Source: an uncultured Aminicenantes bacterium (lineage in GTDB: Bacteria; Acidobacteriota; Aminicenantia; UBA2199). Taken from it: a DNA stretch of 64,000 bases. Every line of letters starts with the position of its first letter. Position 1 is the stretch's first letter. Positions 35,800 through 49,925 of this stretch are shown one piece after another. The stretch is taken from positions 96,001 through 160,000 of the forward strand of contig CBDAFS010000062.1 in assembly GCA_965195285.1 (NCBI GenBank). Direction: 5' to 3'. Below the pieces are notes generated by a model that saw only the letters and a list, made by a program, of their open reading frames with translations, had not been told where the DNA came from and made no database searches. Made by a program: the position numbers and the translations under genes.

Positions 35800-37161
35800 C
35801 TAATCATAAATGGTTATCGATGTCGAATGACTGTTCACTTTGATAATCTCAGTTTCATCCGAAGGAACATTGAGAAAATCAGCCACCGGTTTCACCAGTT
35901 TTTGATAGTTCATTGTTGCGGTTACTACAAATACCCCCTCGGCAATATCATCCGGAAGGGTAAAGGTAAATGTCTCAATTTTTGTCCCCCGGGGAGAAAA
36001 ACGGTAATCAACTCCCAGTGATTTTGTGTTCCACTGTTGGATGGTCATCCGTCCCTGAGGATCAAAATAAGGCATGCGAAAAATTCGATCCCCAAAAGGG
36101 ACACCATCCCGTTGTACTCCGGCAAAATCAGGTTCATCCAACGCAATTCCCATATCCTGGTAGGCCAGGATATCGCTGGCTATAGTATATTCCTCTCCGG
36201 CAAATCCTTTTTTATCGACCGGAAGGTGATAGGTTTTCCCATTGGCATCGCGTCCCTCAACATGCAACCAGACGATGCGATCCTCCACCGAACCCGTGGG
36301 GAATTTATGACCGGTTTTTTGATTAAACAGCACGACGGTAAATTTTACCATATCACCGGGTTCTGCTTCGCGGGTATCCGGGTGAACACGTACCTCAATC
36401 GTCCCGGCGATTTTGCCCGGGTCATGAGCGCCATGAAAAAGGTGCTGCCGGATATCGGGATATTTCTCGGCCATTTCAGCCGAAACTCCCGGAGCGTAGG
36501 TCATATGACAATCATGACAGCGTACACCTTCCCGGGCATAAGGACCTTCTTTCCATTCCAGATGAGTGGACTTTACCCAGATACCATATGGACTTTTTTC
36601 GTTGTGACAGGTTCCGCAAAATTCCGACTTTGACAGGAAATCTGATTTCTGAGTAGCATGTGCCGGCGATACGGCTCCTTCGCGGGGGCCGTATTTTATG
36701 CGGCCAGGCTCGGATACAAAATTAAAATTATGGGGAACTTCACCCTGAAATCCGGTGACCGTATGACATACGTCACAGGAGACCGATTCATTTGCCCGGC
36801 TGTTGGCTTCGGGTCTGGGAGGAGGCACATCACCGGCCAGGAAAGCAATCGGTGAATGACACCCGTTACACCCCGCCTTGACATCAGCAACCATCGGGTC
36901 CTTGTCTGCATGGGGGATTGCCAGCTTAAAATACTCAATTTCGTCCCAGTGGTGTGTATATGCCTGGGACATCATGGCCTGGGTCCACTGCTGATATATA
37001 TCGGTATGGCAGGACGTTCCGCAAACACCCGGTTTTTCATAATCCTTATATGACCGGCTGCCGAGCGCTTCTTCTCCGCTTTTGACCAATCCTTGAGCCA
37101 CCAGCACCAAAGCCAAAACAATCACAATTGACAAATATAAAATCCAAGGTTTGATTTTCAT
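35800..37161 (-). CDS. Periplasmic multiheme cytochrome c (c554-like N-terminal region; four CxxCH plus one CxxxCH)
   Basis: N-terminal signal or anchor; CGTSCH, CNGCH, CDVCH, CGTCH, CHDCH; GHKFPTG motif. Confidence 0.88.
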   Translation of the reverse strand: MKIKPWILYLSIVIVLALVLVAQGLVKSGEEALGSRSYKDYEKPGVCGTSCHTDIYQQWTQAMMSQAYTHHWDEIEYFKLAIPHADKDPMVADVKAGCNGCHSPIAFLAGDVPPPRPEANSRANESVSCDVCHTVTGFQGEVPHNFNFVSEPGRIKYGPREGAVSPAHATQKSDFLSKSEFCGTCHNEKSPYGIWVKSTHLEWKEGPYAREGVRCHDCHMTYAPGVSAEMAEKYPDIRQHLFHGAHDPGKIAGTIEVRVHPDTREAEPGDMVKFTVVLFNQKTGHKFPTGSVEDRIVWLHVEGRDANGKTYHLPVDKKGFAGEEYTIASDILAYQDMGIALDEPDFAGVQRDGVPFGDRIFRMPYFDPQGRMTIQQWNTKSLGVDYRFSPRGTKIETFTFTLPDDIAEGVFVVTATMNYQKLVKPVADFLNVPSDETEIIKVNSHSTSITIYD

Positions 37162-39724: not shown

Positions 39725-40519
39725 TTATTTTAATTCAGATTTAAAATTTAGAAGTCCAACTAATTTTTTTGTTTGTTCAAAACTAAGAGCACTATCGGAT
39801 TCCCCTGATAAAACCTTTCCTATCTCAGAAATTATTCTTTGTTCTACTGTCATTTGCATAAACTTAATTTTCTCAATTACCCTATTGTTTAATTCATCAA
39901 TTTCTTTTTCATATAATACATATGGAAGAAGTTGCTCTACTACTGTATCTTTATACCATTCTGCTATTTCACCTTTTTTTTTCCCTTCATCAAGTATATG
40001 ACATATTCGAAATATTAAAGTAACATAGATATCAAAAAGGGAATGTAAAAAGCTACCTATGAAGGGTTTGTATTTTGCTGTGTTGTCAGTGAAATCTGTT
40101 GCGGCTTTTAGAAGGTTGTCAGTTGTAATATAAGAAAAGAGGAACTCAAGCTCAACATTTTTCACTAAGGATGTATAATCTTTTGGCTGAAATAGATCTA
40201 TAACAGTGAATATTGAAGTGAGGTTGCTATATTTAATTTTTATTAGAGCCTCCCAGAATATTTTTATTGCTTTTAGTCTTTGATTAAAGGAAGCAAGATT
40301 AATTGATGTTAAAGTAGATGTTGAAACACGAAGCTGCTCTTTGGCAATTCCATACTCTGCTGTTAATTGAGCTTTTAATGTTAAAAGTTTTTGGGAATAT
40401 TCAAATTCTATGGATTTTTTCAGTCTTTCAGTAATCCAACTTTTTGTAATCCAAATTAGTATAAAATATAAAAACGCGCTTCCTCCCATTGAAACGACTA
40501 TAGTTTCTATATTTGTCAT
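39725..40519 (-). CDS. Hypothetical AT-rich protein, N-terminal TM plus coiled coil
   Basis: 264-aa ORF with AAGGAG RBS and codon usage unlike the housekeeping genes. Confidence 0.7.
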   Translation of the reverse strand: MTNIETIVVSMGGSAFLYFILIWITKSWITERLKKSIEFEYSQKLLTLKAQLTAEYGIAKEQLRVSTSTLTSINLASFNQRLKAIKIFWEALIKIKYSNLTSIFTVIDLFQPKDYTSLVKNVELEFLFSYITTDNLLKAATDFTDNTAKYKPFIGSFLHSLFDIYVTLIFRICHILDEGKKKGEIAEWYKDTVVEQLLPYVLYEKEIDELNNRVIEKIKFMQMTVEQRIISEIGKVLSGESDSALSFEQTKKLVGLLNFKSELK

Positions 40520-40670
40520 AGATTCTCCTTAAATTGAACATGTAACAAATTCATCTCTCACAATGCATTTATATGATAATAATATAGCACATCTGACTTT
40601 GTATTAAAAATATAGAATCGAATAAACTTGAAATTTAATTTCATATCAATATAATTGGAGTGGAGAGATA

Positions 40671-41453
40671 ATGAGTGATGAAACTGGTAAATTTTTTATA
40701 TTCTTAAGTTACATTGATGAAGAAAAGAAAATAGCTGAAGTTTTAAAAGAATGGATTGAAGCAAGTTCTTTAGATCAAATTGAAGTTTTTGCTTATAGTG
40801 ATAAAGAGAGTATTGATCTTGGTGAGGAATGGCATGAGAAAATAATCGATGCACTGAATAGATCAAATTTACTCATTGTATTAAGTAGTGAATTTTCAAT
40901 TGAGAGACCTTGGGTAAATTTTGAATCAGGTGCTGCTTGGATAAAAAAAATTCCAATAATTCCAATATGTCATACCGGAATGTCCAAAGATAGTATACCA
41001 GATCCATATAGAAGAAAACTTGCGATTAATTTGGATGACAAGAATTTTGGACTCACACTTTTTAAAAGTATCATGAAGAAAATAGGTTATAAAGGAGATT
41101 TGAAAACTGATTTTAATAGAATGGAAGAGGAAATTCAATCTGCAAAAAATGAAATTAAGTATGATTTTTCTAGAACGAAATCAGTAAATCGAAAGAATGA
41201 AGTTGATCAATTAGAGCTGTCTGATATGGGGAAAAGTATTCTTAGAATGTTAGCTGACAAAGGAGATTTATATTGTGCTAAGTCAGAATTATATAATGCA
41301 TTTAATGTTCATAATCAAAAAGTCCAAAATGAACTGAACAAATTTAAAAATGATGATTATATAGATTTTCTATATATAGAAAGAAGAGATCAAGATTGTT
41401 ATTATTTAACCCCAAAAGGAACTGATCTTGTTGTGAGATTGAATATTGTTTGA
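40671..41453 (+). CDS. TIR-domain protein with a C-terminal winged-helix-like domain
   Basis: IFLSY, SIDLGEEW...I..AL..S, S..S..RPWVNFESGAAW (catalytic-type Glu), IIPI; C-terminal YYLTPKG wing; TTGAAA-16-TATAAT upstream. Confidence 0.85.
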   Translation: MSDETGKFFIFLSYIDEEKKIAEVLKEWIEASSLDQIEVFAYSDKESIDLGEEWHEKIIDALNRSNLLIVLSSEFSIERPWVNFESGAAWIKKIPIIPICHTGMSKDSIPDPYRRKLAINLDDKNFGLTLFKSIMKKIGYKGDLKTDFNRMEEEIQSAKNEIKYDFSRTKSVNRKNEVDQLELSDMGKSILRMLADKGDLYCAKSELYNAFNVHNQKVQNELNKFKNDDYIDFLYIERRDQDCYYLTPKGTDLVVRLNIV

Positions 41454-41806: not shown

Positions 41807-41812
41807 GGATTG

Positions 41813-44161
41813 ATGGCTGAGGCGTATTATTTAAAAGACTTTTCGGAAGATTCGGTCAGGGATCTGATCAAAGAAGTCTATGGTTTGGAGGCCTCGGTTT
41901 CCAAAATGGCTGCCGAGCGGGACTTCAATTACCTGGTCAAAACCGGAGACAAAACTTCCTATGTGTTCAAGATTTCAAACCCGGAAGACAGCCGGGAAAT
42001 AGTAGAAGCCCAGCACCAGGTCCTGAACCACCTGGCCCGGGGGAAGGGTGAGATCAACTGTCCCCAACCAATTGAAACCCGATCCGGTGACACTATTTTC
42101 AGGGTCAGCTGTGGCCCGGACCGAAAATCCTTTTTTTTCCGCCTCTTGACCTTTCTGGAAGGTAAGTTCTACAGCGATCTTGAAGCACATTCTCCCGAAT
42201 TGGAAAAAAACCTGGGTGAATTCCTGGGGGCCATGGACCGGGAGTTAACCGGATTTGTCCACCCGGCCCTGAACCGCTACTTTATCTGGGACCTGAAAAA
42301 TATCAGGGATATCCGCCCCTATCTGAAAGATATTCCGGAGACCGACCGGCGAAACCTGGTATTGCATTTCATTCAGTTATATGAAACCGAGGTGGAACCG
42401 TTCCGCCATCTGCTGCCCTGTTCGGTGATCCACAATGATGCCAATGACCACAATATTCTGGTGGACGATTCCGGCTCCCGGGTAACCGGTATCATTGATT
42501 TCGGTGACATGGTCTACTCCCAGACCGTCAATGAATTAGCCGCCGGCCTGGCCTATGCCATCATGAACAAAACCGACCCGACCAAAACCATGGTCCGGGT
42601 GGTTTCCGGATACCATTGCCAGCGTCCCCTGACAGAAGCGGAGATCGACGCACTGTTTTTTCTGATAGCTGCGCGGCTCAGCATCAGTGTGGCCCTGTCC
42701 GCCCACCGATTGAACCATTCCCCCGGAAATAAATATCTGCAGATTTCTACTGCCCCGGCCTGGGAAACATTAGAACAGCTGGGCCGAATCAATCCCGACC
42801 GGATTACCCTAACCCTGCGCAAAGAGTGTGGGTTTTCACAGGCCGGCATCCGATCGGGACCTTCTGTCAACGAAATCCTCCAATCCCGAAAACAGCGGAT
42901 CGGAAGCACCCTGAGCATTTCCTATCAGAAACCCCTTAAAATGACCCGGGGATATATGCAGTATCTATTCGATAATGAGGGCAAAGAATTTCTGGATACG
43001 GTCAACAATGTCTGCCATGTAGGTCATTGTCACCCCCGGGTGGTGGAAGCCGCCCAGCGCCAGTTCAGCCTGTTAAACACCAACACCCGGTATCTTTATG
43101 ATTCTCTGGTGGACCTGTCTGAATCCCTGTGTAGCACGCTACCCGAACCCCTGAGGGTATGTTATTTTGTGAATTCCGGCAGTGAAGCCAACGAACTGGC
43201 CCTGCGCATCGCCAAGACCTGTACCGGACACAGAGATTTTGTGGTCATCGATCATGCCTATCACGGCAATACCAATGCGGTCATTGAGATCAGCCCCTAT
43301 AAATTCGATGGGCCCGGCGGCACCGGCCAGTCCCCACATGTCCACAAGGTCCGGATGCCCGATACCTACCGGGGTGAATTCCGGGAGGATGATCCAAAAG
43401 CCGGATTAAAATACGGCCGGGATATCGACCAGGCCCTCAGGAAAATCAAACAGACCGGAAAGGGCATTGCCGGGTTTATTGCCGAATCCATCAGCAGTGT
43501 CGGGGGTCAAATATTTCTGCCTGCCCATTATCTCGAATCTATTTACGAACAGGTGCGAAAAGCCGGGGGCCTCTGTATCGCCGATGAAGTCCAGGTGGGG
43601 TTCGGACGGGTGGGCAGCCATTTCTGGGCCTTCGAATTACAGGATGTGGTACCGGATATAGTGACCATGGGCAAACCCATGGGCAACGGCCATCCGATAG
43701 CAGCCGTGGTAACCACTCCCGAGATCGATGCGGCCTTTAACAAGGGCATGGAATACTTCAATACCTTTGGAGGTAATCCCGTGGCCTGCACCATCGGCCT
43801 GTCGGTATTAGAGGTGATCCGGAGCGAAAATCTGCAACAACACGCTTCAGAGGTGGGAAAATATTTCCTCGAACAGCTAGAAGAATTAATGAAGGAGCAC
43901 GATCTGATCGGCGATGTACGGGGATCGGGATTGTTTCTGGGTATCGAACTGGTCCTGGACCGCTCCAGCCTGGAACCGGCTAAAGAACATGCCTATGATA
44001 TTGCCAATCGAATGCGGGAGAACGGAATCCTTATCAGCATCGACGGTCCGCTTCACAATGTGATAAAAATCAAGCCCCCCCTGGTTTTCAATAAAAAGGA
44101 TGCTGACCGCTATGTCGAACAGCTGGACCGGATACTCAACATAAAACGGACATTAGATTGA
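41813..44161 (+). CDS. Fusion of an APH/hydroxylysine-kinase-like phosphotransferase and a class III PLP aminotransferase/phospholyase
   Basis: HNDANDHN and DFGD kinase motifs; NNVCHVGHCHP, NSGSEAN, YHG, ADEVQVGFGR, TMGKP PLP lysine. Confidence 0.9.
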   Translation: MAEAYYLKDFSEDSVRDLIKEVYGLEASVSKMAAERDFNYLVKTGDKTSYVFKISNPEDSREIVEAQHQVLNHLARGKGEINCPQPIETRSGDTIFRVSCGPDRKSFFFRLLTFLEGKFYSDLEAHSPELEKNLGEFLGAMDRELTGFVHPALNRYFIWDLKNIRDIRPYLKDIPETDRRNLVLHFIQLYETEVEPFRHLLPCSVIHNDANDHNILVDDSGSRVTGIIDFGDMVYSQTVNELAAGLAYAIMNKTDPTKTMVRVVSGYHCQRPLTEAEIDALFFLIAARLSISVALSAHRLNHSPGNKYLQISTAPAWETLEQLGRINPDRITLTLRKECGFSQAGIRSGPSVNEILQSRKQRIGSTLSISYQKPLKMTRGYMQYLFDNEGKEFLDTVNNVCHVGHCHPRVVEAAQRQFSLLNTNTRYLYDSLVDLSESLCSTLPEPLRVCYFVNSGSEANELALRIAKTCTGHRDFVVIDHAYHGNTNAVIEISPYKFDGPGGTGQSPHVHKVRMPDTYRGEFREDDPKAGLKYGRDIDQALRKIKQTGKGIAGFIAESISSVGGQIFLPAHYLESIYEQVRKAGGLCIADEVQVGFGRVGSHFWAFELQDVVPDIVTMGKPMGNGHPIAAVVTTPEIDAAFNKGMEYFNTFGGNPVACTIGLSVLEVIRSENLQQHASEVGKYFLEQLEELMKEHDLIGDVRGSGLFLGIELVLDRSSLEPAKEHAYDIANRMRENGILISIDGPLHNVIKIKPPLVFNKKDADRYVEQLDRILNIKRTLD

Positions 44162-44182: not shown

Positions 44183-45031
44183 TTAAAATTCAACCCCGAA
44201 ACGTTTTCTCAAGGCTAATACAATGATGATCACCAGGATCAGGTGATAGACCAACCAGTGGGTTTTCAATCCTAACAGGGAAACACTCTTGGCCGGATAT
44301 CGGAGAGAAAGGGTGTCGACCGGACCGACATTTTTAATTAATTTTTCAGCCGGATAGATAAAATGGTCGACAGAGGATTTTCCCATTTTTTTGTTCGAAA
44401 GGGATTCCGTATTTTTACCGATCACCAGGTTTTTACTGATTATCTGCTCATTGACCTGAACCCGAATATCAGTATGGCCCGGTTTCAGGCACTTCAACTT
44501 CCAGTTTACTTCACGGATGGGTCTGGTGCGTTCATCATCCTCATAGGCATTGATAAAAACCGGATTCATCACCGGCTTAAAATGGTCGCTGTCCAGCAAC
44601 CGGATTTTCATACCTTTCGGATCGGAATTCAACCGGGCCTTGAATACAAAAATATCGTCCGGTTCAAAGGGCCTCATCCCGTAGCGGATGTCCATTTGAA
44701 CAAATATAGGGAAAAGAATGGGAATGATGATGAGCACGGGACCGATATTCAGCATGAAATACTTCAGGGTATAAAACAGACTTTTAAAAAAAGATCCGGT
44801 AATCACCCTCCAGAAATCTTTGTACAGCCTGATGGCTAATATGCTGGATTTTATTTTATTTTTGGTATCCTTGATCCGGGTCGGAGAAGATATATATTTG
44901 AAGATGACCAGTACGATCAGAGAGATCAAAATGCTCAGAAAGAGAATGGCCAAAAAATCCCCCAAAAATCCAAAAGGGTACAGTATCACATCAAATACTT
45001 TGGTAATGAAAAAATTAACCTGCTGTATCAT
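44183..45031 (-). CDS. Membrane protein resembling EMC3/TMCO1/DUF106 (Oxa1 superfamily), with an inserted soluble domain
   Basis: Amphipathic N-terminus, TM1, basic coiled segment, TM2 with P..I..P, soluble beta-rich insert, terminal WLVY...LRKRFGV TM. Confidence 0.55.
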   Translation of the reverse strand: MIQQVNFFITKVFDVILYPFGFLGDFLAILFLSILISLIVLVIFKYISSPTRIKDTKNKIKSSILAIRLYKDFWRVITGSFFKSLFYTLKYFMLNIGPVLIIIPILFPIFVQMDIRYGMRPFEPDDIFVFKARLNSDPKGMKIRLLDSDHFKPVMNPVFINAYEDDERTRPIREVNWKLKCLKPGHTDIRVQVNEQIISKNLVIGKNTESLSNKKMGKSSVDHFIYPAEKLIKNVGPVDTLSLRYPAKSVSLLGLKTHWLVYHLILVIIIVLALRKRFGVEF

Positions 45032-45220
45032 TTAGGATATGTATCCCAGCCCGCTCAACTTGTCAGCCTGTTCCTCTTTGTTATCATCGGATTTAATGGT
45101 TTCATATTCCTTATTGATCAGATTATCAATGAGTTCTTCCACCGAAGAATATCCGTGAAAGGCCAGGATCTCATCCACTTTCTGGGCACTTTCATTGCTG
45201 AGTTTTACTTTTTTTGCCAT
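45032..45220 (-). CDS. Small ribbon-helix-helix-like protein with C-terminal KLSGLGYI motif
   Basis: VKLS strand, GYSSVEELI turn-helix, LxxLGY tail; AGGAG RBS; its TAA abuts the next ATG. Confidence 0.75.
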   Translation of the reverse strand: MAKKVKLSNESAQKVDEILAFHGYSSVEELIDNLINKEYETIKSDDNKEEQADKLSGLGYIS

Positions 45221-45229
45221 TTCTTTCTC

Positions 45230-47200
45230 CTAAATTAGCGATCTTCCCTTTACCGTAGGAACATTTTCGATCCCGAAATATTTCAGAATGGTCGGGGCAA
45301 CATCCCGGATATGGGGGATTTTGGTATTGATCTTGAAATTTGAAACAAAACTGGCCGGTACATGAACCGGATCGATGAGATGATCTCCGGACCACCAGTC
45401 CATATTATCACTGAGCATCTCTTTGGAAAATCCGCCCAGGGCAGCTCCGTCACCACAGCGGTATCCCTTATTGAATCCCATGATGATATCGGGTGCCCGG
45501 TCAATGAAATCCTTGGAAAAATAATCTTCGGATATATAAGCCTGGGAGATTACCTGTTGTCCGTTCTGAGGATCTTTGATCATTTCCAGCTTGGCCTTGA
45601 TCTCTTCCAGAAGTTTTCTCCTTTCCTCCGGTTTTACAATACCCTGGGCTTCCCGTCCCTTTAAATTCAAGTACAATCCGTTAAGCCCCATGAAATAGGC
45701 CTTGGTGTTGTTCCAATCCCCATACCCTAACAAATCAACATCTTCGGAGATACCATCGACAGTCAGCTTTTGATAACCCTCCTGGTATAACCAGTTGTTT
45801 ATATTTACCTGTCGGCGATAGGGATTGAATCCATGGTCCGAGACTACCAGTATGGAAACATCTTCGGGGCATCTCTTGAGCACATCCCCGAGAATACGGT
45901 CATGCATGCGATAGAGCTCATGGTGGATGTAGCCATATTTCTTCTGGGCTTCGGGCTTATAAAAGGGATGATCCTTGTCATTCAAGGCCCAGCACATGTG
46001 CTGGCCCTGATCCGCCGCCGAAAAATAGAAAAACAGAAATCCGCTCTTCTTCTGAAGAAATCGATCAAACTCATATTTAAAAATCTTCTTACTTTCCTCG
46101 AAAACCGACAGGGACTGAACGATATAGTTTTCCATAGAAAAAGTACCCTGACTCAGGGCTTTGGTATCAGCAGGCAAATTAATGGTATGAAAAAGGCCGC
46201 AGTGCTCAGCCAGTTCCTTGCTGTAAGAAGAAGGAGTGCTGATGGACAGGGCCGGATCCCGGGGACTGATATGAATCGGTGACACATACAGCCTGAATTT
46301 TTCCCCCATCTCCATCAGGTAAAACCTGACCATCCCGGTGACGCTGCTGATGTTTGGAATCAGGGGAAATTTGATTTCCACCCATCCGGATAATTGTTTT
46401 TCGGATAACAATATTTCTTTGCCCTGAACATCTATTCTGGCGGTTTTGTGCTGGTAATCCAGATAGGCGCGGAAGGGGATCTCCACATTTTCACCATCCT
46501 CCACCAGGTCATTTTTGGGGCCTTCAATAATCCCATTCTCCATCACATGATCATCGTTGATGTAAGCATAGTACATGTTGTTGGGTGAAATATCCTTTTC
46601 GGATTCCTCTTCATCCGAGGTAAATAGGGTATATATCCCGTAAGTCCCCATGATGTCCGGGGTACCCATACCGGAAATGGTTCGCTGGTTACTATCCGAA
46701 GGGGGGTAATTATTGGGGATCTTAAAGATGGTGGCATCCACATCCCGTTCTTCGAGGTAATCCCAGAAGGCTTTCCCTTCCCGCTTTAAAACCACTTTTC
46801 CGGATTTCAGGGGTATTTTGTATTTCCCTAACTTTACAATCCATTCGGAGGGAAAGGTCTCGGCCCAGGATGGGATGGGGAAATAATTGTTAGGATCCCG
46901 GTGTACCCAGTCAAAAATACCGAAAGTTCCGGGATCTGATCCGGTGATGAAACTCCCCCAGGCAACCGGGCTGTGGGGAGGGATGGTGGTCCTCATCATG
47001 GTAAAAGTCCCTCTCTGGGCCAGTTTCTTCATATTGGGCATCTGCCCCTGTTGCATCAACCGATAGGTGATCATCGGATCCATGCCATCGATACCCAGAA
47101 CAATCATTTTTTTTGATCCGGGTCCGGCGGAGGCAAAGTTCATGAATGGTGTTGCCGCCAATACCATTCCCGTATTTCGAATAAATTCTCGTCGTCTCAT
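45230..47200 (-). CDS. Alkaline phosphatase superfamily (NPP/phosphodiesterase-like, COG3379 type) protein with twin-arginine signal
   Basis: MRRREFI signal; GIDGMD, PPHSPVAW (Ser nucleophile), DQGQH, SDHGF, SGDH. Confidence 0.88.
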   Translation of the reverse strand: MRRREFIRNTGMVLAATPFMNFASAGPGSKKMIVLGIDGMDPMITYRLMQQGQMPNMKKLAQRGTFTMMRTTIPPHSPVAWGSFITGSDPGTFGIFDWVHRDPNNYFPIPSWAETFPSEWIVKLGKYKIPLKSGKVVLKREGKAFWDYLEERDVDATIFKIPNNYPPSDSNQRTISGMGTPDIMGTYGIYTLFTSDEEESEKDISPNNMYYAYINDDHVMENGIIEGPKNDLVEDGENVEIPFRAYLDYQHKTARIDVQGKEILLSEKQLSGWVEIKFPLIPNISSVTGMVRFYLMEMGEKFRLYVSPIHISPRDPALSISTPSSYSKELAEHCGLFHTINLPADTKALSQGTFSMENYIVQSLSVFEESKKIFKYEFDRFLQKKSGFLFFYFSAADQGQHMCWALNDKDHPFYKPEAQKKYGYIHHELYRMHDRILGDVLKRCPEDVSILVVSDHGFNPYRRQVNINNWLYQEGYQKLTVDGISEDVDLLGYGDWNNTKAYFMGLNGLYLNLKGREAQGIVKPEERRKLLEEIKAKLEMIKDPQNGQQVISQAYISEDYFSKDFIDRAPDIIMGFNKGYRCGDGAALGGFSKEMLSDNMDWWSGDHLIDPVHVPASFVSNFKINTKIPHIRDVAPTILKYFGIENVPTVKGRSLI

Positions 47201-47233
47201 TTCAAATCCCCTTTGTTTTCATTCCATGACTCT

Positions 47234-49321
47234 TCATTGAACCTTCAGGTTTTTTCCTTCAATAAAGGACGGTGGTTCAATGCCAAAAACAGATAACACC
47301 GTGGGCGAGATATCAAGCAGAGAAGGATCTGCCTCCGATATTTTTTTATTACTGAAAAATATCCCGGGCACCTGTTCTCTGGTCAGGGCATGATCCCCGC
47401 TCCACATCTTCAGGTTATCGGAAAAACACCGATCACCCACATAATTCACGGTGGATTCCCAGGATACCCGGTGGCCGATATTATAGCCCACGACAATATC
47501 CGGTGCATTATCCACATAGGGCCCGCGGTATATTTCTTCCCGCTTGTAAACCGATTTTAAAACCCGGGTACGGGTCTTGTCATCGATCACCTTGAGTAAT
47601 TTATCTTTAATTTCACTTTTGATTTTTTCTGCTTCCGGGCCTCTATTCACGATTCCCTGTTTTTCCCTTCCCTTCATATTGAGGAAAATTCCGTTGAGCC
47701 CCTGGCCATAAGCCCTGGATTTTGACCAGTCAACATCGGCATACCATTTACCGCTTTCCTTTTTACCGTCCTTCAATACCAGATAGCCCTGCTGGTGAAG
47801 CCAGGTATTCAAGTGAAATTCGCGATTGAAGGCATTAAATCCATGGTCGGAAACAATCATCAGCAGGTCATTTTTATTGATGCGGGGTAATAGTTTCCCC
47901 AAAAAATCATCCATGGCCCGGTAGGATTCATAGATGGCATTCACAATATGGCTGTCTTTGGAAGGTTTATCGGCCGGGGAACCGGAATGCTTCAGATACC
48001 TCCAGAACATGTGCTGGATTCGATCGGTTGCCTCAAAAACCTGAACCAGCAGCCCCTGCTTGAATTTCCCGAACGTATTAAAAAATATCTTCTCCCGTTC
48101 TTGCTGGGTATTGTATACCTGCTGAAGAAAAACGTCCTCTGACAGAATCCCTTCGTTTACCGCCCAGGTGTCCTCGGCCTGGCCCAGTGTGGCAAAGGCC
48201 CCCAGTAATTTTGACAGATAAACCGAAAAGATTTTGGGATGGGATACGGGCATGGAAGGTTTTTCCGGGTCAATGTTGATGGGAGACAGATACAGTTTGA
48301 TGGGATCGGTGTCTTCCAAAACCCACTGGGCAATCCCGGATATTTTAATCAATCCGGCCTTAAATTCCAGGGGAATCCAGATTGAGAGTTTTTTGCTCTC
48401 GATCCGGTACTTATCCTTGCCTATCTCAATCTCCCCCGAACCATTGCCCTTATTCAGGGTAAATTTAAAATCCAGCTCCAGGGGGGGATTGCCCCGTACA
48501 AAGGGATTGGCAGGACCTTTGATCGTTCCGGCATAGCAATTTTCATCAGTTTTTTCCAGCTTTTCGTAGATTCCTTCCGAAATATCGAAATCCTTGTCTT
48601 TGCCGTCAGAATAAAAACTAAAACTGCCCTGGGATCCTCTCAAATCAGGAGTACTGAGACCGGAAAGCATGCAACCGTAGAACTTTTCGGCCGGAAAGGT
48701 AAAAGGCACCCGTAAAACAGCTGAATATATCCCCTTGCTGCTGACAATTTTCCAGAAACTTTTGCTCTTGCGCTTCCATTCGATCTTGGGCTTGGAAATG
48801 GGTATGGTCAGCTTTCCGATATTTAACACCCGCTTGGGGGGAAGGATATCGGAACTGGCCAGTTTGGGCATGTAGGTATTCCGGTCCGTGGTTAAAAAAT
48901 CAAAAATATTGTGTTTTCCGGGATTCACCCCGGTAGAAAAGGTCGACCAGGCCACCGGAGAAATGGGGGGTTCCGTACTCCATAATGGAGTGAAGGTGCC
49001 GGATTCGGAAACACGGTCAAAATTCGGGAATGATTTTCCTTCTTTTTTGAACCGCTTCATAAGATTGTAATCCATTCCATCAAAACCCACAACGATCACC
49101 CTTTTATATTTGGCTTTTTTTAAGGTTCGGATCCTTTTCAAGAATTTAAAGAAGGTTCTGACCGGAAAGGTCAGCAGGTTAAAAAAGGCTAAGAAAAAGG
49201 CCACAAATATAAAGAAAAAAGATCCCACAAAAGCAAAACCCGCTCCGGGCCCCACATAGGAAAATATAGGACAGACCAGAAATAAAAGCGAGAGGAATAC
49301 GATAACCTTTACTTTTCTCAT
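47234..49321 (-). CDS. Alkaline phosphatase superfamily (COG3379 type) protein with signal peptide, YVGPGAG motif and TM anchor
   Basis: GFDGMD, PPISPVAW, TGVNPGKHNIFDF, DRIQH, SDHGF, SGDH. Start placed at ATG 49321 (MRKVKV), where the signal peptide begins. Confidence 0.88.
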   Translation of the reverse strand: MRKVKVIVFLSLLFLVCPIFSYVGPGAGFAFVGSFFFIFVAFFLAFFNLLTFPVRTFFKFLKRIRTLKKAKYKRVIVVGFDGMDYNLMKRFKKEGKSFPNFDRVSESGTFTPLWSTEPPISPVAWSTFSTGVNPGKHNIFDFLTTDRNTYMPKLASSDILPPKRVLNIGKLTIPISKPKIEWKRKSKSFWKIVSSKGIYSAVLRVPFTFPAEKFYGCMLSGLSTPDLRGSQGSFSFYSDGKDKDFDISEGIYEKLEKTDENCYAGTIKGPANPFVRGNPPLELDFKFTLNKGNGSGEIEIGKDKYRIESKKLSIWIPLEFKAGLIKISGIAQWVLEDTDPIKLYLSPINIDPEKPSMPVSHPKIFSVYLSKLLGAFATLGQAEDTWAVNEGILSEDVFLQQVYNTQQEREKIFFNTFGKFKQGLLVQVFEATDRIQHMFWRYLKHSGSPADKPSKDSHIVNAIYESYRAMDDFLGKLLPRINKNDLLMIVSDHGFNAFNREFHLNTWLHQQGYLVLKDGKKESGKWYADVDWSKSRAYGQGLNGIFLNMKGREKQGIVNRGPEAEKIKSEIKDKLLKVIDDKTRTRVLKSVYKREEIYRGPYVDNAPDIVVGYNIGHRVSWESTVNYVGDRCFSDNLKMWSGDHALTREQVPGIFFSNKKISEADPSLLDISPTVLSVFGIEPPSFIEGKNLKVQ

Positions 49322-49431: not shown

Positions 49432-49890
49432 CTATCTTGTTTGGTGTTTCTGACATTGGTTGCAAAACCCTTCTAAAATTACCTTCTTGCTCAACACCCG
49501 GTATTGTTTTTTCAGAACCGGGGGAATCTTCAGGTTATCATAGGCCGGATGGTAGATATCAATGATGTCATCGCAGCGAAGACATCTGAAATGGTGATGA
49601 TCCGACAGATTGGGATCAAAACGGCGCGGATTGCCATAACCTTCCACGACTCTCACGATTCCGACTTTTGAAAAAGTCAACAGGGTTCGGTTCACCGTGT
49701 CAAATGAAATATTGGGAAAAATCTTTTTGGCCCTTTTAAACAGTTTTTCCGCACTGGGATGTTCTCTGGATTCGACCAGTTCCCGGTATAACATCAACCG
49801 CTGCGGGGTCAATTTCAGCTTATGCTGTTTACACTTCTCGATAAAACGATCCATATCAAGATCCCGGTCACCAAATTCATCTTTTTTCAT
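49432..49890 (-). CDS. Fur family transcriptional regulator, PerR-like
   Basis: LTPQR, HPSAE, HHHFRCLRC, IIDI, FCNQC. Confidence 0.9.
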   Translation of the reverse strand: MKKDEFGDRDLDMDRFIEKCKQHKLKLTPQRLMLYRELVESREHPSAEKLFKRAKKIFPNISFDTVNRTLLTFSKVGIVRVVEGYGNPRRFDPNLSDHHHFRCLRCDDIIDIYHPAYDNLKIPPVLKKQYRVLSKKVILEGFCNQCQKHQTR

Positions 49891-49896
49891 CTCATT

Positions 49897-49925
49897 ACTA
49901 TATAGTATTCGTTCCTATTTGTCAA
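49897..49925 (-). promoter_or_regulatory. Sigma70 promoter of the perR-like gene (leaderless) with an imperfect palindrome in the spacer
   Basis: TTGACA-17 bp-TATAGT, 6 nt before ATG 49890; spacer contains ATAGGAACGAATACTAT. Confidence 0.7.

Follow-up and report, generated by a model that had tools for sequence, protein, structure and literature searches.

The three-transmembrane (TM) branch of the Oxa1 superfamily has been placed in archaea and the endoplasmic reticulum (PMC8887752, PMC8675477, PMC5868721, PMC13261788). The heterodimer with an EMC6-like partner is stated there to be absent from bacteria, and bacterial YidC to have two extra helices (PMC8675477). Short polar segments pass through Oxa1 grooves (PMC13261788). 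In the Dlt and Pat systems an invariant terminal Tyr moves an acyl group from a membrane protein to a Ser enzyme on the outside (PMC12148441), and in Halobacterium the AlkP-fold proteins Agl30 and Agl31 serve as glycan sulfotransferases (PMC11980604). Arylsulfotransferases use aryl sulfates and accept Tyr peptides, their natural partners being mostly not known (PMC13426309). Here we describe a four-gene operon (genes A to D) that brings elements resembling these systems together. It lies in a 64,000-nucleotide stretch of contig CBDAFS010000062.1 from an uncultured Aminicenantes bacterium (the window, meaning the whole stretch analysed), and encodes two AlkP-superfamily paralogues, a small ribbon-helix-helix (RHH)-like protein and a bacterial three-TM protein of the Oxa1 superfamily. 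We tentatively read it as the membrane-crossing arm of a sulfation pathway. An initial annotation of the window, made from the letters alone, had singled out these genes as tightly packed and co-directional; all four are indeed on the minus strand, in the order A-B-C-D, with gaps of 33, 9 and 0 nt. The features, in window coordinates, are as follows.

47234-49321, minus strand: gene A, 695 aa, start codon ATG at 49321; AlkP/NPP-type, COG3379-like, with a large beta insert
49259-49321, minus strand: predicted signal peptide of A (residues 1-21), ending immediately before Tyr
49238-49258, minus strand: Y[VI]GPGAG motif of A, with a Tyr predicted to be the first residue of mature A and to face outward, a candidate carrier of the transferred group
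49163-49237, minus strand: single TM helix of A (residues 29-53), with a conserved GFA..GSF face; putative partner helix of D
45230-47200, minus strand: gene B, 656 aa; A paralogue that keeps the two-metal/Ser site intact, has a twin-arginine leader and is predicted to be exported
45032-45220, minus strand: gene C, 62 aa; RHH-like protein with a C-terminal LxGLGY tail
45041-45058, minus strand: the LxGLGY tail of C, at its C-terminal end
44183-45031, minus strand: gene D, 282 aa; three-TM Oxa1-superfamily protein of the Ylp1/DUF106/TMCO1 type, with a basic cytoplasmic hairpin
about 44261-44692, minus strand: Ig-like outer domain of D, between TM2 and TM3

The reading frame of A stays open upstream of ATG 49321, as far as TTG 49465. 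The GC content of the A-B-C-D region is in line with that of the surrounding chromosome, which holds core genes, and the nearest named homologues are from Candidatus Aminicenantes.

Gene D had been called Oxa1-like, and the Oxa1 fold is now supported by a family profile match, Pfam, an AlphaFold2 (AF2) model and structural matches. The D family profile matches archaeal MJ0480 (5c8j) with an E value of 9.1e-7, and PF01956 (EMC3_TMCO1) is matched by 9 of 138 family members (best E 4.8e-8), D itself being unmatched. The Atlas model of a 92% identical homologue of D aligns with an archaeal EMC3/TMCO1 cluster at a TM-score of 0.65 over 254 aa. The AF2 model of D (pLDDT 96.7) contains, in order, TM1, a helical hairpin, TM2, a beta domain and TM3, with helices at residues 25-47, 50-69, 74-117 and 259-274, and the charges of the protein fit an N-out/C-in topology. 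Its best structural match is 7tut_8, a multipass translocon chain that we take to be TMCO1 (Z 11.2, rmsd 3.7, 136 residues aligned, to be read against a caution level of about 13 for helical proteins); the match to YidC (3wo7) has a Z of 7.8, and taken alone both values are modest for a helical protein. Foldseek gave weak Ig-like matches to the insert, with no Oxa1 protein among the matches listed, and direct library or single-sequence searches of Pfam, NCBIfam and PDB returned no name for D. The five-TM core of bacterial YidC is absent, D having three TM segments, and no YidC model in Pfam or NCBIfam matched. From the profile and structural matches and the three TM segments, D is therefore a true member of the Oxa1 superfamily, of the archaeal three-TM Ylp1/TMCO1 type, and is not a YidC. 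The family is large (1866 clusters at 50% identity), and 100 distant representatives have a median identity of 38% to the nearest D from the loci surveyed below. Across 147 sequences the conserved columns are S33 (89%), S/T at 267 (83%), K/R275 (92%) and K/R at 57 (99%), T36 being conserved too; at two of these groove-type polar positions the D of the window itself has I36 and V267 instead of polar residues. A plasmid search gave no match to D.

With Ylp1/DUF106 (MJ0480, 5C8J), TMCO1, EMC3 and GET1, D shares a three-TM core, the N-out/C-in orientation, a cytoplasmic helical hairpin and, at the level of its family, polar residues at putative groove positions. Unlike them, it is a bacterial protein, has an Ig-like domain of ~140 aa on the outer side and is encoded within an operon of enzymes that lacks a three-TM EMC6-like gene; no such partner was among the recurring neighbours of the operon at the loci surveyed.

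The four genes had been regarded as a module, and the neighbourhood survey agrees. GTDB was scanned with an alignment of A, and the best 80 of 589 confirmed loci were retained, 12 of them cut by contig ends and 68 informative; because loci were sampled via A, any with D but no A lie outside the sample. The full A-B-C-D set was found in 50/68 informative loci, A-C-D in 6/68 and A alone in 12/68, so the order A-(B)-C-D holds in 56/68. The labels of the records include Aminicenantes, Planctomycetota, deltaproteobacteria, Thermodesulfobacteriota, Acidobacteriota, Eisenbacteria, Calditrichota and Auribacterota. An identical order in 50/68 loci from many phyla argues that the arrangement is not due to chance. 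Outside the Aminicenantia-type group C and D are present in every informative locus (37/37), and the 12 loci with A alone are close Aminicenantia-type sequences from one lineage, several of which have one common gene context. At these loci (L005, L007, L008, L010, L012, L014, L015, L017, L024, L026, L027 and L039) the Tyr motif of A is kept where the N-terminus is visible. Across the survey, some records (L014, L018, L020, L022, L023, L025, L027, L032 and L033) are titled 'uncultured Clostridia', and their A proteins are 57-68% identical to A of the window; such titles on Aminicenantes-like A genes are probably loose labels.

A and B are NPP-type members of the AlkP superfamily, a type marked by phosphodiesterase or nucleotide pyrophosphatase activity. 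They are 34% identical over 629 aa, and both match PF01663 (Pfam). The metal and Ser-nucleophile motifs quoted for them in the initial annotation are all present, and when 71 A and 52 B sequences are aligned jointly, conservation of all six metal ligands and of the Ser reaches 95% or more in each family. The active-site residues are D81, S121, D433, H437, D492, H493 and H644 in A, and D38, S77, D397, H401, D455, H456 and H607 in B. The structure of A, rather than of B, was predicted, and the AF2 model (pLDDT 91.9) has an AlkP fold whose nearest structures are ENPP4, ENPP6 and Xac NPP (Z about 27), next phosphonoacetate hydrolase and PafA, and then sulfatases (Z about 23). The formylglycine (S1) sulfatase motif C/SxPxR is absent from A and B, in which the nucleophile stands in the context PP.SPVAW, and the Pfam Sulfatase match (16.3 bits) falls below the cut-off of 25. 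In a quick tree built from 52 rows of available sequences a well-supported branch divides A from B; with respect to the short paralogues the two are sister clades, and their subtrees are similar. A PDB search with the single A sequence gave nothing useful (best E 0.15). Compared with NPP/ENPP enzymes, phosphonoacetate hydrolase and PafA, then, A and B share the fold and the two-metal site (Z 24-27) but differ in their low identity (12-18%), in the extent aligned (about 350-400 of 674 residues), in having extra inserts and in their two-sided pairing.

That pairing across the membrane had also been proposed, with the catalytic domain of A in the cytoplasm and B on the opposite side, and the charges and signals support it; the topologies of A, B and D all derive from such sequence rules. 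B begins with the twin-arginine-like (Tat) leader MRRREFI. Among 56 B homologues 38 have a strict RRxF[LIVM] motif, 5 a looser RR, 10 a hydrophobic Sec or lipoprotein-like leader and 3 are unclear, the classes other than the strict motif having been assigned by eye. An export signal is thus retained where its type changes from Tat to Sec or lipoprotein, and B is predicted to be exported. A has the signal-like segment, YVGPGAG motif, TM helix and basic stretch noted before, residues 54-75 containing 10 K/R and zero D/E; a TM helix followed by a strongly basic helix would place the catalytic domain inside. The residue preceding the Tyr is A, S, G or C in 78/78 locus homologues and 96/96 database homologues, and a small residue at this position in all 78 implies that signal peptidase should leave Tyr as residue 1. 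The motif is therefore predicted to start exactly at the mature N-terminus of A, with its Tyr outside. The 78 homologues divide into 39 with YVGPGAG and 39 with YIGPGAG, the alignment columns being otherwise invariant. One of the scan patterns included YVGPGAGFA and the other represented the catalytic domain of A; the 39 YIGPGAG loci must have entered through the latter, since the former would not match them. With the N-terminus of A as query, an Atlas feature search returned its own family alone, at 0.75, and a plasmid search found no match.

An RHH-like domain with an LGY tail, the anatomy described for C, is likewise supported. Its N-terminal part matches the NikR RHH weakly in separate profile searches (E 0.015, 0.037 and 0.0092), there are 138 close homologues, and the LxGLGY tail is invariant in 56/56 locus homologues. 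A Pfam match of C to Orthopox_F6 was below the cut-off and was rejected. The same tail ends 13 of 2935 non-C open reading frames (ORFs) of at least 90 aa, with ~0.5 expected among 976 called genes. Eleven of these 13 are CysD (3), adenosine 5'-phosphosulfate (APS) kinase (1), sulfatase-like proteins (3), B (1) and small proteins beside cys genes (3); moreover, a second B protein ends in a close variant of the tail. In two haloarchaeal plasmid glycan clusters 5/15 translated genes bear the tail: a pair of sulfatases, one AlkP, one CysD-like protein, and a C-like protein of 72 aa whose gene immediately precedes that of an AlkP lacking the tail. This small C-like protein recurs in 7 Halorussus plasmids. 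With a planctomycete C as query, a similar Haloarcula protein encoded next to an AlkP gene was retrieved (E 0.009). C had been suggested to be the small subunit of a complex. Its description as an RHH-like protein with an LGY tail stands, but a generic small subunit is less likely than a pathway tag or carrier, because the tail is shared with sulfate-activation enzymes. At L046, L052, L074, L056 and L081 an LGY-tailed CysD or APS kinase has as its neighbour a short AlkP without the tail; at L046, L052, L074 and L081 an APS kinase was not detected in the vicinity, which hints at APS-based sulfation there.

The genes beside the operon point to sulfate. Pfam searches covered 115 neighbour proteins, most of them taken from 178 co-oriented ones, with BLAST tracing across all loci and confirmation of key families by NCBIfam. 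Outside Aminicenantia a sulfation-related gene is present in 22/37 informative loci, or 19/37 not counting sulfatases. A sulfotransferase of the type dependent on 3'-phosphoadenosine 5'-phosphosulfate (PAPS) is present in 14 loci and follows D by no more than 35 nt in 10, and an arylsulfotransferase directly precedes A in 7. CysD/CysN occur in 3 loci, APS kinase in 2 (one with ATP sulfurylase) and sulfate permease in 1. In 5 loci the operon is flanked or broken up by sulfatase-like genes, two of which lie inside it in L055. Another 8-locus set has short tail-less AlkP paralogues, and there the sulfotransferase is absent throughout. In the quick tree the links to sulfation genes are spread over several separate A clades. 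The initial annotation had left open phospho- or sulfo-transfer or hydrolysis, and the neighbours favour the sulfuryl over the phosphoryl alternative.

Of six sulfatase-like proteins examined next to the operon, four read WT[LG]PSH at the CxPxR position, and these are candidate sulfotransferases. They lie at L055:3967-8333, L074:7938-9359 and L078:9156-10004, and the three in L055 and L074 bear the LGY tail. In three related loci without B an EamA/DMT transporter follows D (L038:8098-9033, L042 and L044:13128-14072); the EamA/DMT superfamily includes nucleotide-sugar and PAPS transporters.

Set against described systems, the operon is like DltB-DltX-DltD and PatA-PatB in its proposed logic, with a cytoplasmic donor or carrier, a membrane protein, an invariant terminal Tyr and an outside enzyme with a Ser intermediate (PMC12148441). 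It differs in that MBOAT, SGNH and the C-terminal FxYxxF motif are unmatched in all four proteins, which have AlkP, Oxa1 and RHH folds instead. A further difference from the acyl shuttles of Dlt and Pat is that signal cleavage would put the operon's Tyr at the N-terminus and that the transferred group is likely to be sulfuryl. With Agl30/Agl31 of Halobacterium it shares AlkP-superfamily proteins, used there for biosynthetic sulfation, and the term PAPS is absent from the paper on them (PMC11980604). Haloarchaeal glycan clusters contain distant relatives of A and B together with LGY-tailed proteins. Agl30/31 are sulfatase-like; A and B, for their part, are of an NPP-like type, contain a large insert and are proposed to act together with a membrane partner. 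Lastly, an arylsulfotransferase and a PAPS-dependent sulfotransferase occur together with the operon at L047, L057, L064, L068, L076 and L080, as in the caprazamycin Cpz8/Cpz4 relay. That relay reportedly uses a small-molecule carrier, unlike the protein Tyr and membrane crossing proposed for the operon. Searches did not confirm the existence of stand-alone YxDPG microproteins beside YidC-fused transferases.

Taken together, these data lead us to favour, at somewhat less than an even chance, an operon that forms the membrane-crossing arm of a sulfation pathway, relaying sulfuryl groups derived from APS or PAPS on Tyr carriers via D to B. Activated sulfate from the cytoplasm would in this way be carried outside as a covalently bound sulfuryl group. 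Tyr60 in the LGY tail of C would be loaded either by a PAPS-dependent sulfotransferase or by a short AlkP paralogue without the tail, and the cytoplasmic domain of A would take the group from C onto Ser121. From there it would pass to A's own N-terminal Tyr1. Held on a short Gly/Pro linker, this Tyr may reach down into a hydrophilic groove of D, the Oxa1-fold protein, where the bilayer would be thinned. Ser77 of exported B would then accept the sulfuryl, and B would pass it to outside acceptors, or to exported sulfatase-like or arylsulfotransferase enzymes that decorate surface glycans or proteins. This outward relay is favoured because of the anatomy (an inner enzyme, its outer twin, a groove protein and two Tyr) and because of the Dlt/Pat, AlkP-sulfotransferase and arylsulfotransferase precedents. 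Its parts differ in strength. The transferred group is probably sulfate; the direction leans slightly towards outward; and a tyrosine shuttle through D, like every physical contact in the scheme, is put forward tentatively. The broader picture is rather doubtful, namely a bacterial counterpart of Golgi sulfation that has no PAPS transporter, in which an archaeal-type Oxa1 insertase fold would have been recruited as a conduit for an N-terminal Tyr bearing sulfuryl between twin AlkPs, and the LGY tail would be a general tag for sulfotyrosine carriers in an as yet undescribed network that leads from APS/PAPS to surface sulfation and that haloarchaea share.

Several observations weigh against the outward relay. 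The main chemical objection is that NPP-type sites normally attack phosphorus; A and B have a two-metal site of this kind, and in the structural comparison phosphodiesterases come closer than sulfatases. The RHH of C, with its conserved KxK strand, suggests DNA binding, and D, which has no invariant residue, fits a scaffold as well as a conduit. A occurs without an adjacent B in the 6 A-C-D loci and alone in 12. No sulfation genes are among the window proteins scanned, and 0/19 Aminicenantia-type loci with C and D have an adjacent sulfotransferase or cys gene, so the sulfate link for this genome rests on distant homologues. Elsewhere 15/37 informative loci also do without sulfation genes, many of the sulfotransferase and arylsulfotransferase cases belong to one Planctomycetota/deltaproteobacterial clade and are non-independent, and the neighbour counts stand without a genome-wide background rate.

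Alternatively, D could be a private insertase or chaperone that holds or inserts the hairpin of A once, with YxGPGAG as its recognition motif and with A and B acting on a diffusible or lipid substrate, each on its own side. The signal-short loop-TM hairpin of A resembles simple YidC clients such as M13 procoat, and D keeps features typical of Oxa1 proteins: it has three TMs, its cytoplasmic hairpin is basic (K/R at 57) and its TM faces are polar. Ylp1, moreover, binds ribosome-nascent chains in vitro (PMC5868721), and Oxa1 clients have short translocated segments (PMC8675477). However, a cleavable Sec-type signal should need no such helper, and this view would leave unexplained why an invariant Tyr stands precisely at residue 1, why there is an Ig-like domain on the outside and why D stays with C and B. 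We consider this unlikely.

Phosphoryl or nucleotide chemistry is in our view improbable, despite the two-metal NPP site, the NPP-type nearest folds and the NikR-like RHH that would suit it. A and B would be NPP-like hydrolases or transferases that, for example, clear 3'-phosphoadenosine 5'-phosphate (PAP), APS or PAPS or else transfer a phospho-substituent onto a polymer of the envelope. C would be an RHH regulator or activator docking on A through its LGY tail. Tail-less AlkPs stand repeatedly beside LGY-tailed proteins, as a docking tag would, and the lack of sulfation genes in the window fits too. However, plain hydrolysis needs neither an Oxa1-fold partner nor an invariant outer Tyr nor matched paralogues on two sides, a crude k-mer and palindrome search of 77 regions upstream of A found no conserved operator-like motif beyond a -10-like element, and no phospho-donor pathway gene recurs among the neighbours.

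It is more doubtful still that D is a scramblase for a lipid-linked carrier, which A would charge with sulfate inside, D flip and B unload outside. LtaS/EptA-type enzymes use lipid donors, and insertases are reported to scramble lipids in one further study (10.1101/2023.09.01.555937). A is membrane-anchored with a basic amphipathic helix and has sulfation neighbours, and lipid scrambling by insertases has been described (PMC13261788). However, Tyr1 and the LGY tail would have no explanation, B is soluble in most lineages, and no lipid-synthesis gene recurs among the neighbours. Least credible is an inward or catabolic relay, in which B and the arylsulfotransferase would strip sulfate esters from outside aryl compounds or glycans and the sulfuryl would be imported or released, sparing sulfate activation: the arylsulfotransferase and sulfatase-like neighbours, the symmetric anatomy and the reversibility of sulfuryl transfer between aryl groups would allow it, but ATP sulfurylase, CysD/CysN, APS kinase and sulfate permease make or feed activated sulfate, related short AlkPs sit in glycan biosynthesis clusters, and the adjacent sulfatase-like proteins mostly have WT[LG]PSH, not CxPxR (4/6 examined).

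Around the operon, a PerR/Fur-family gene (49432-49890, minus strand) lies immediately upstream of A and may be co-transcribed with it here; a sigma-70-like promoter-like site (11/12 match) is found at this gene (49897-49925). It was rejected as a member of the module, since a homologue occurs in only 1/80 loci. Convergent on D is a fusion of an APH kinase and a class III aminotransferase (41810-44161, plus strand; GC 0.53), which is PRK06148-like but shorter than the model. Further away, a low-GC stretch at 39725-41453 (about 0.31-0.36) holds a TIR-domain gene (40671-41453; TIR_2 match and a weak ThsB-like match) and an unnamed 264-aa gene, and is possibly a small defence insert. A multihaem cytochrome c (c554-like) and then an unannotated 399-aa gene are located at 35800-37161 (minus strand).

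The initial annotation knew of no described function for this combination, and in the literature searched (mostly open-access, main text) the operon, a bacterial DUF106-type protein and the two Tyr motifs are likewise undescribed. The parts belong to known superfamilies, the architecture as a system fits no described kind, and the mechanism proposed for it is hypothetical. The firm part is a large bacterial family of three-TM, archaeal-type Oxa1 proteins that is tied to an enzyme operon, which makes the operon a test case for the use of the Oxa1 groove beyond general protein insertion. If the relay holds true, it would bear on how prokaryotes sulfate molecules outside the cytoplasm and on the source of the sulfuryl donor for periplasmic arylsulfotransferases and Agl30/31-type enzymes. 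The tyrosine-shuttle principle would then extend from acyl to sulfuryl groups, and COG3379, which a single paper in the literature searched names, would gain a function.

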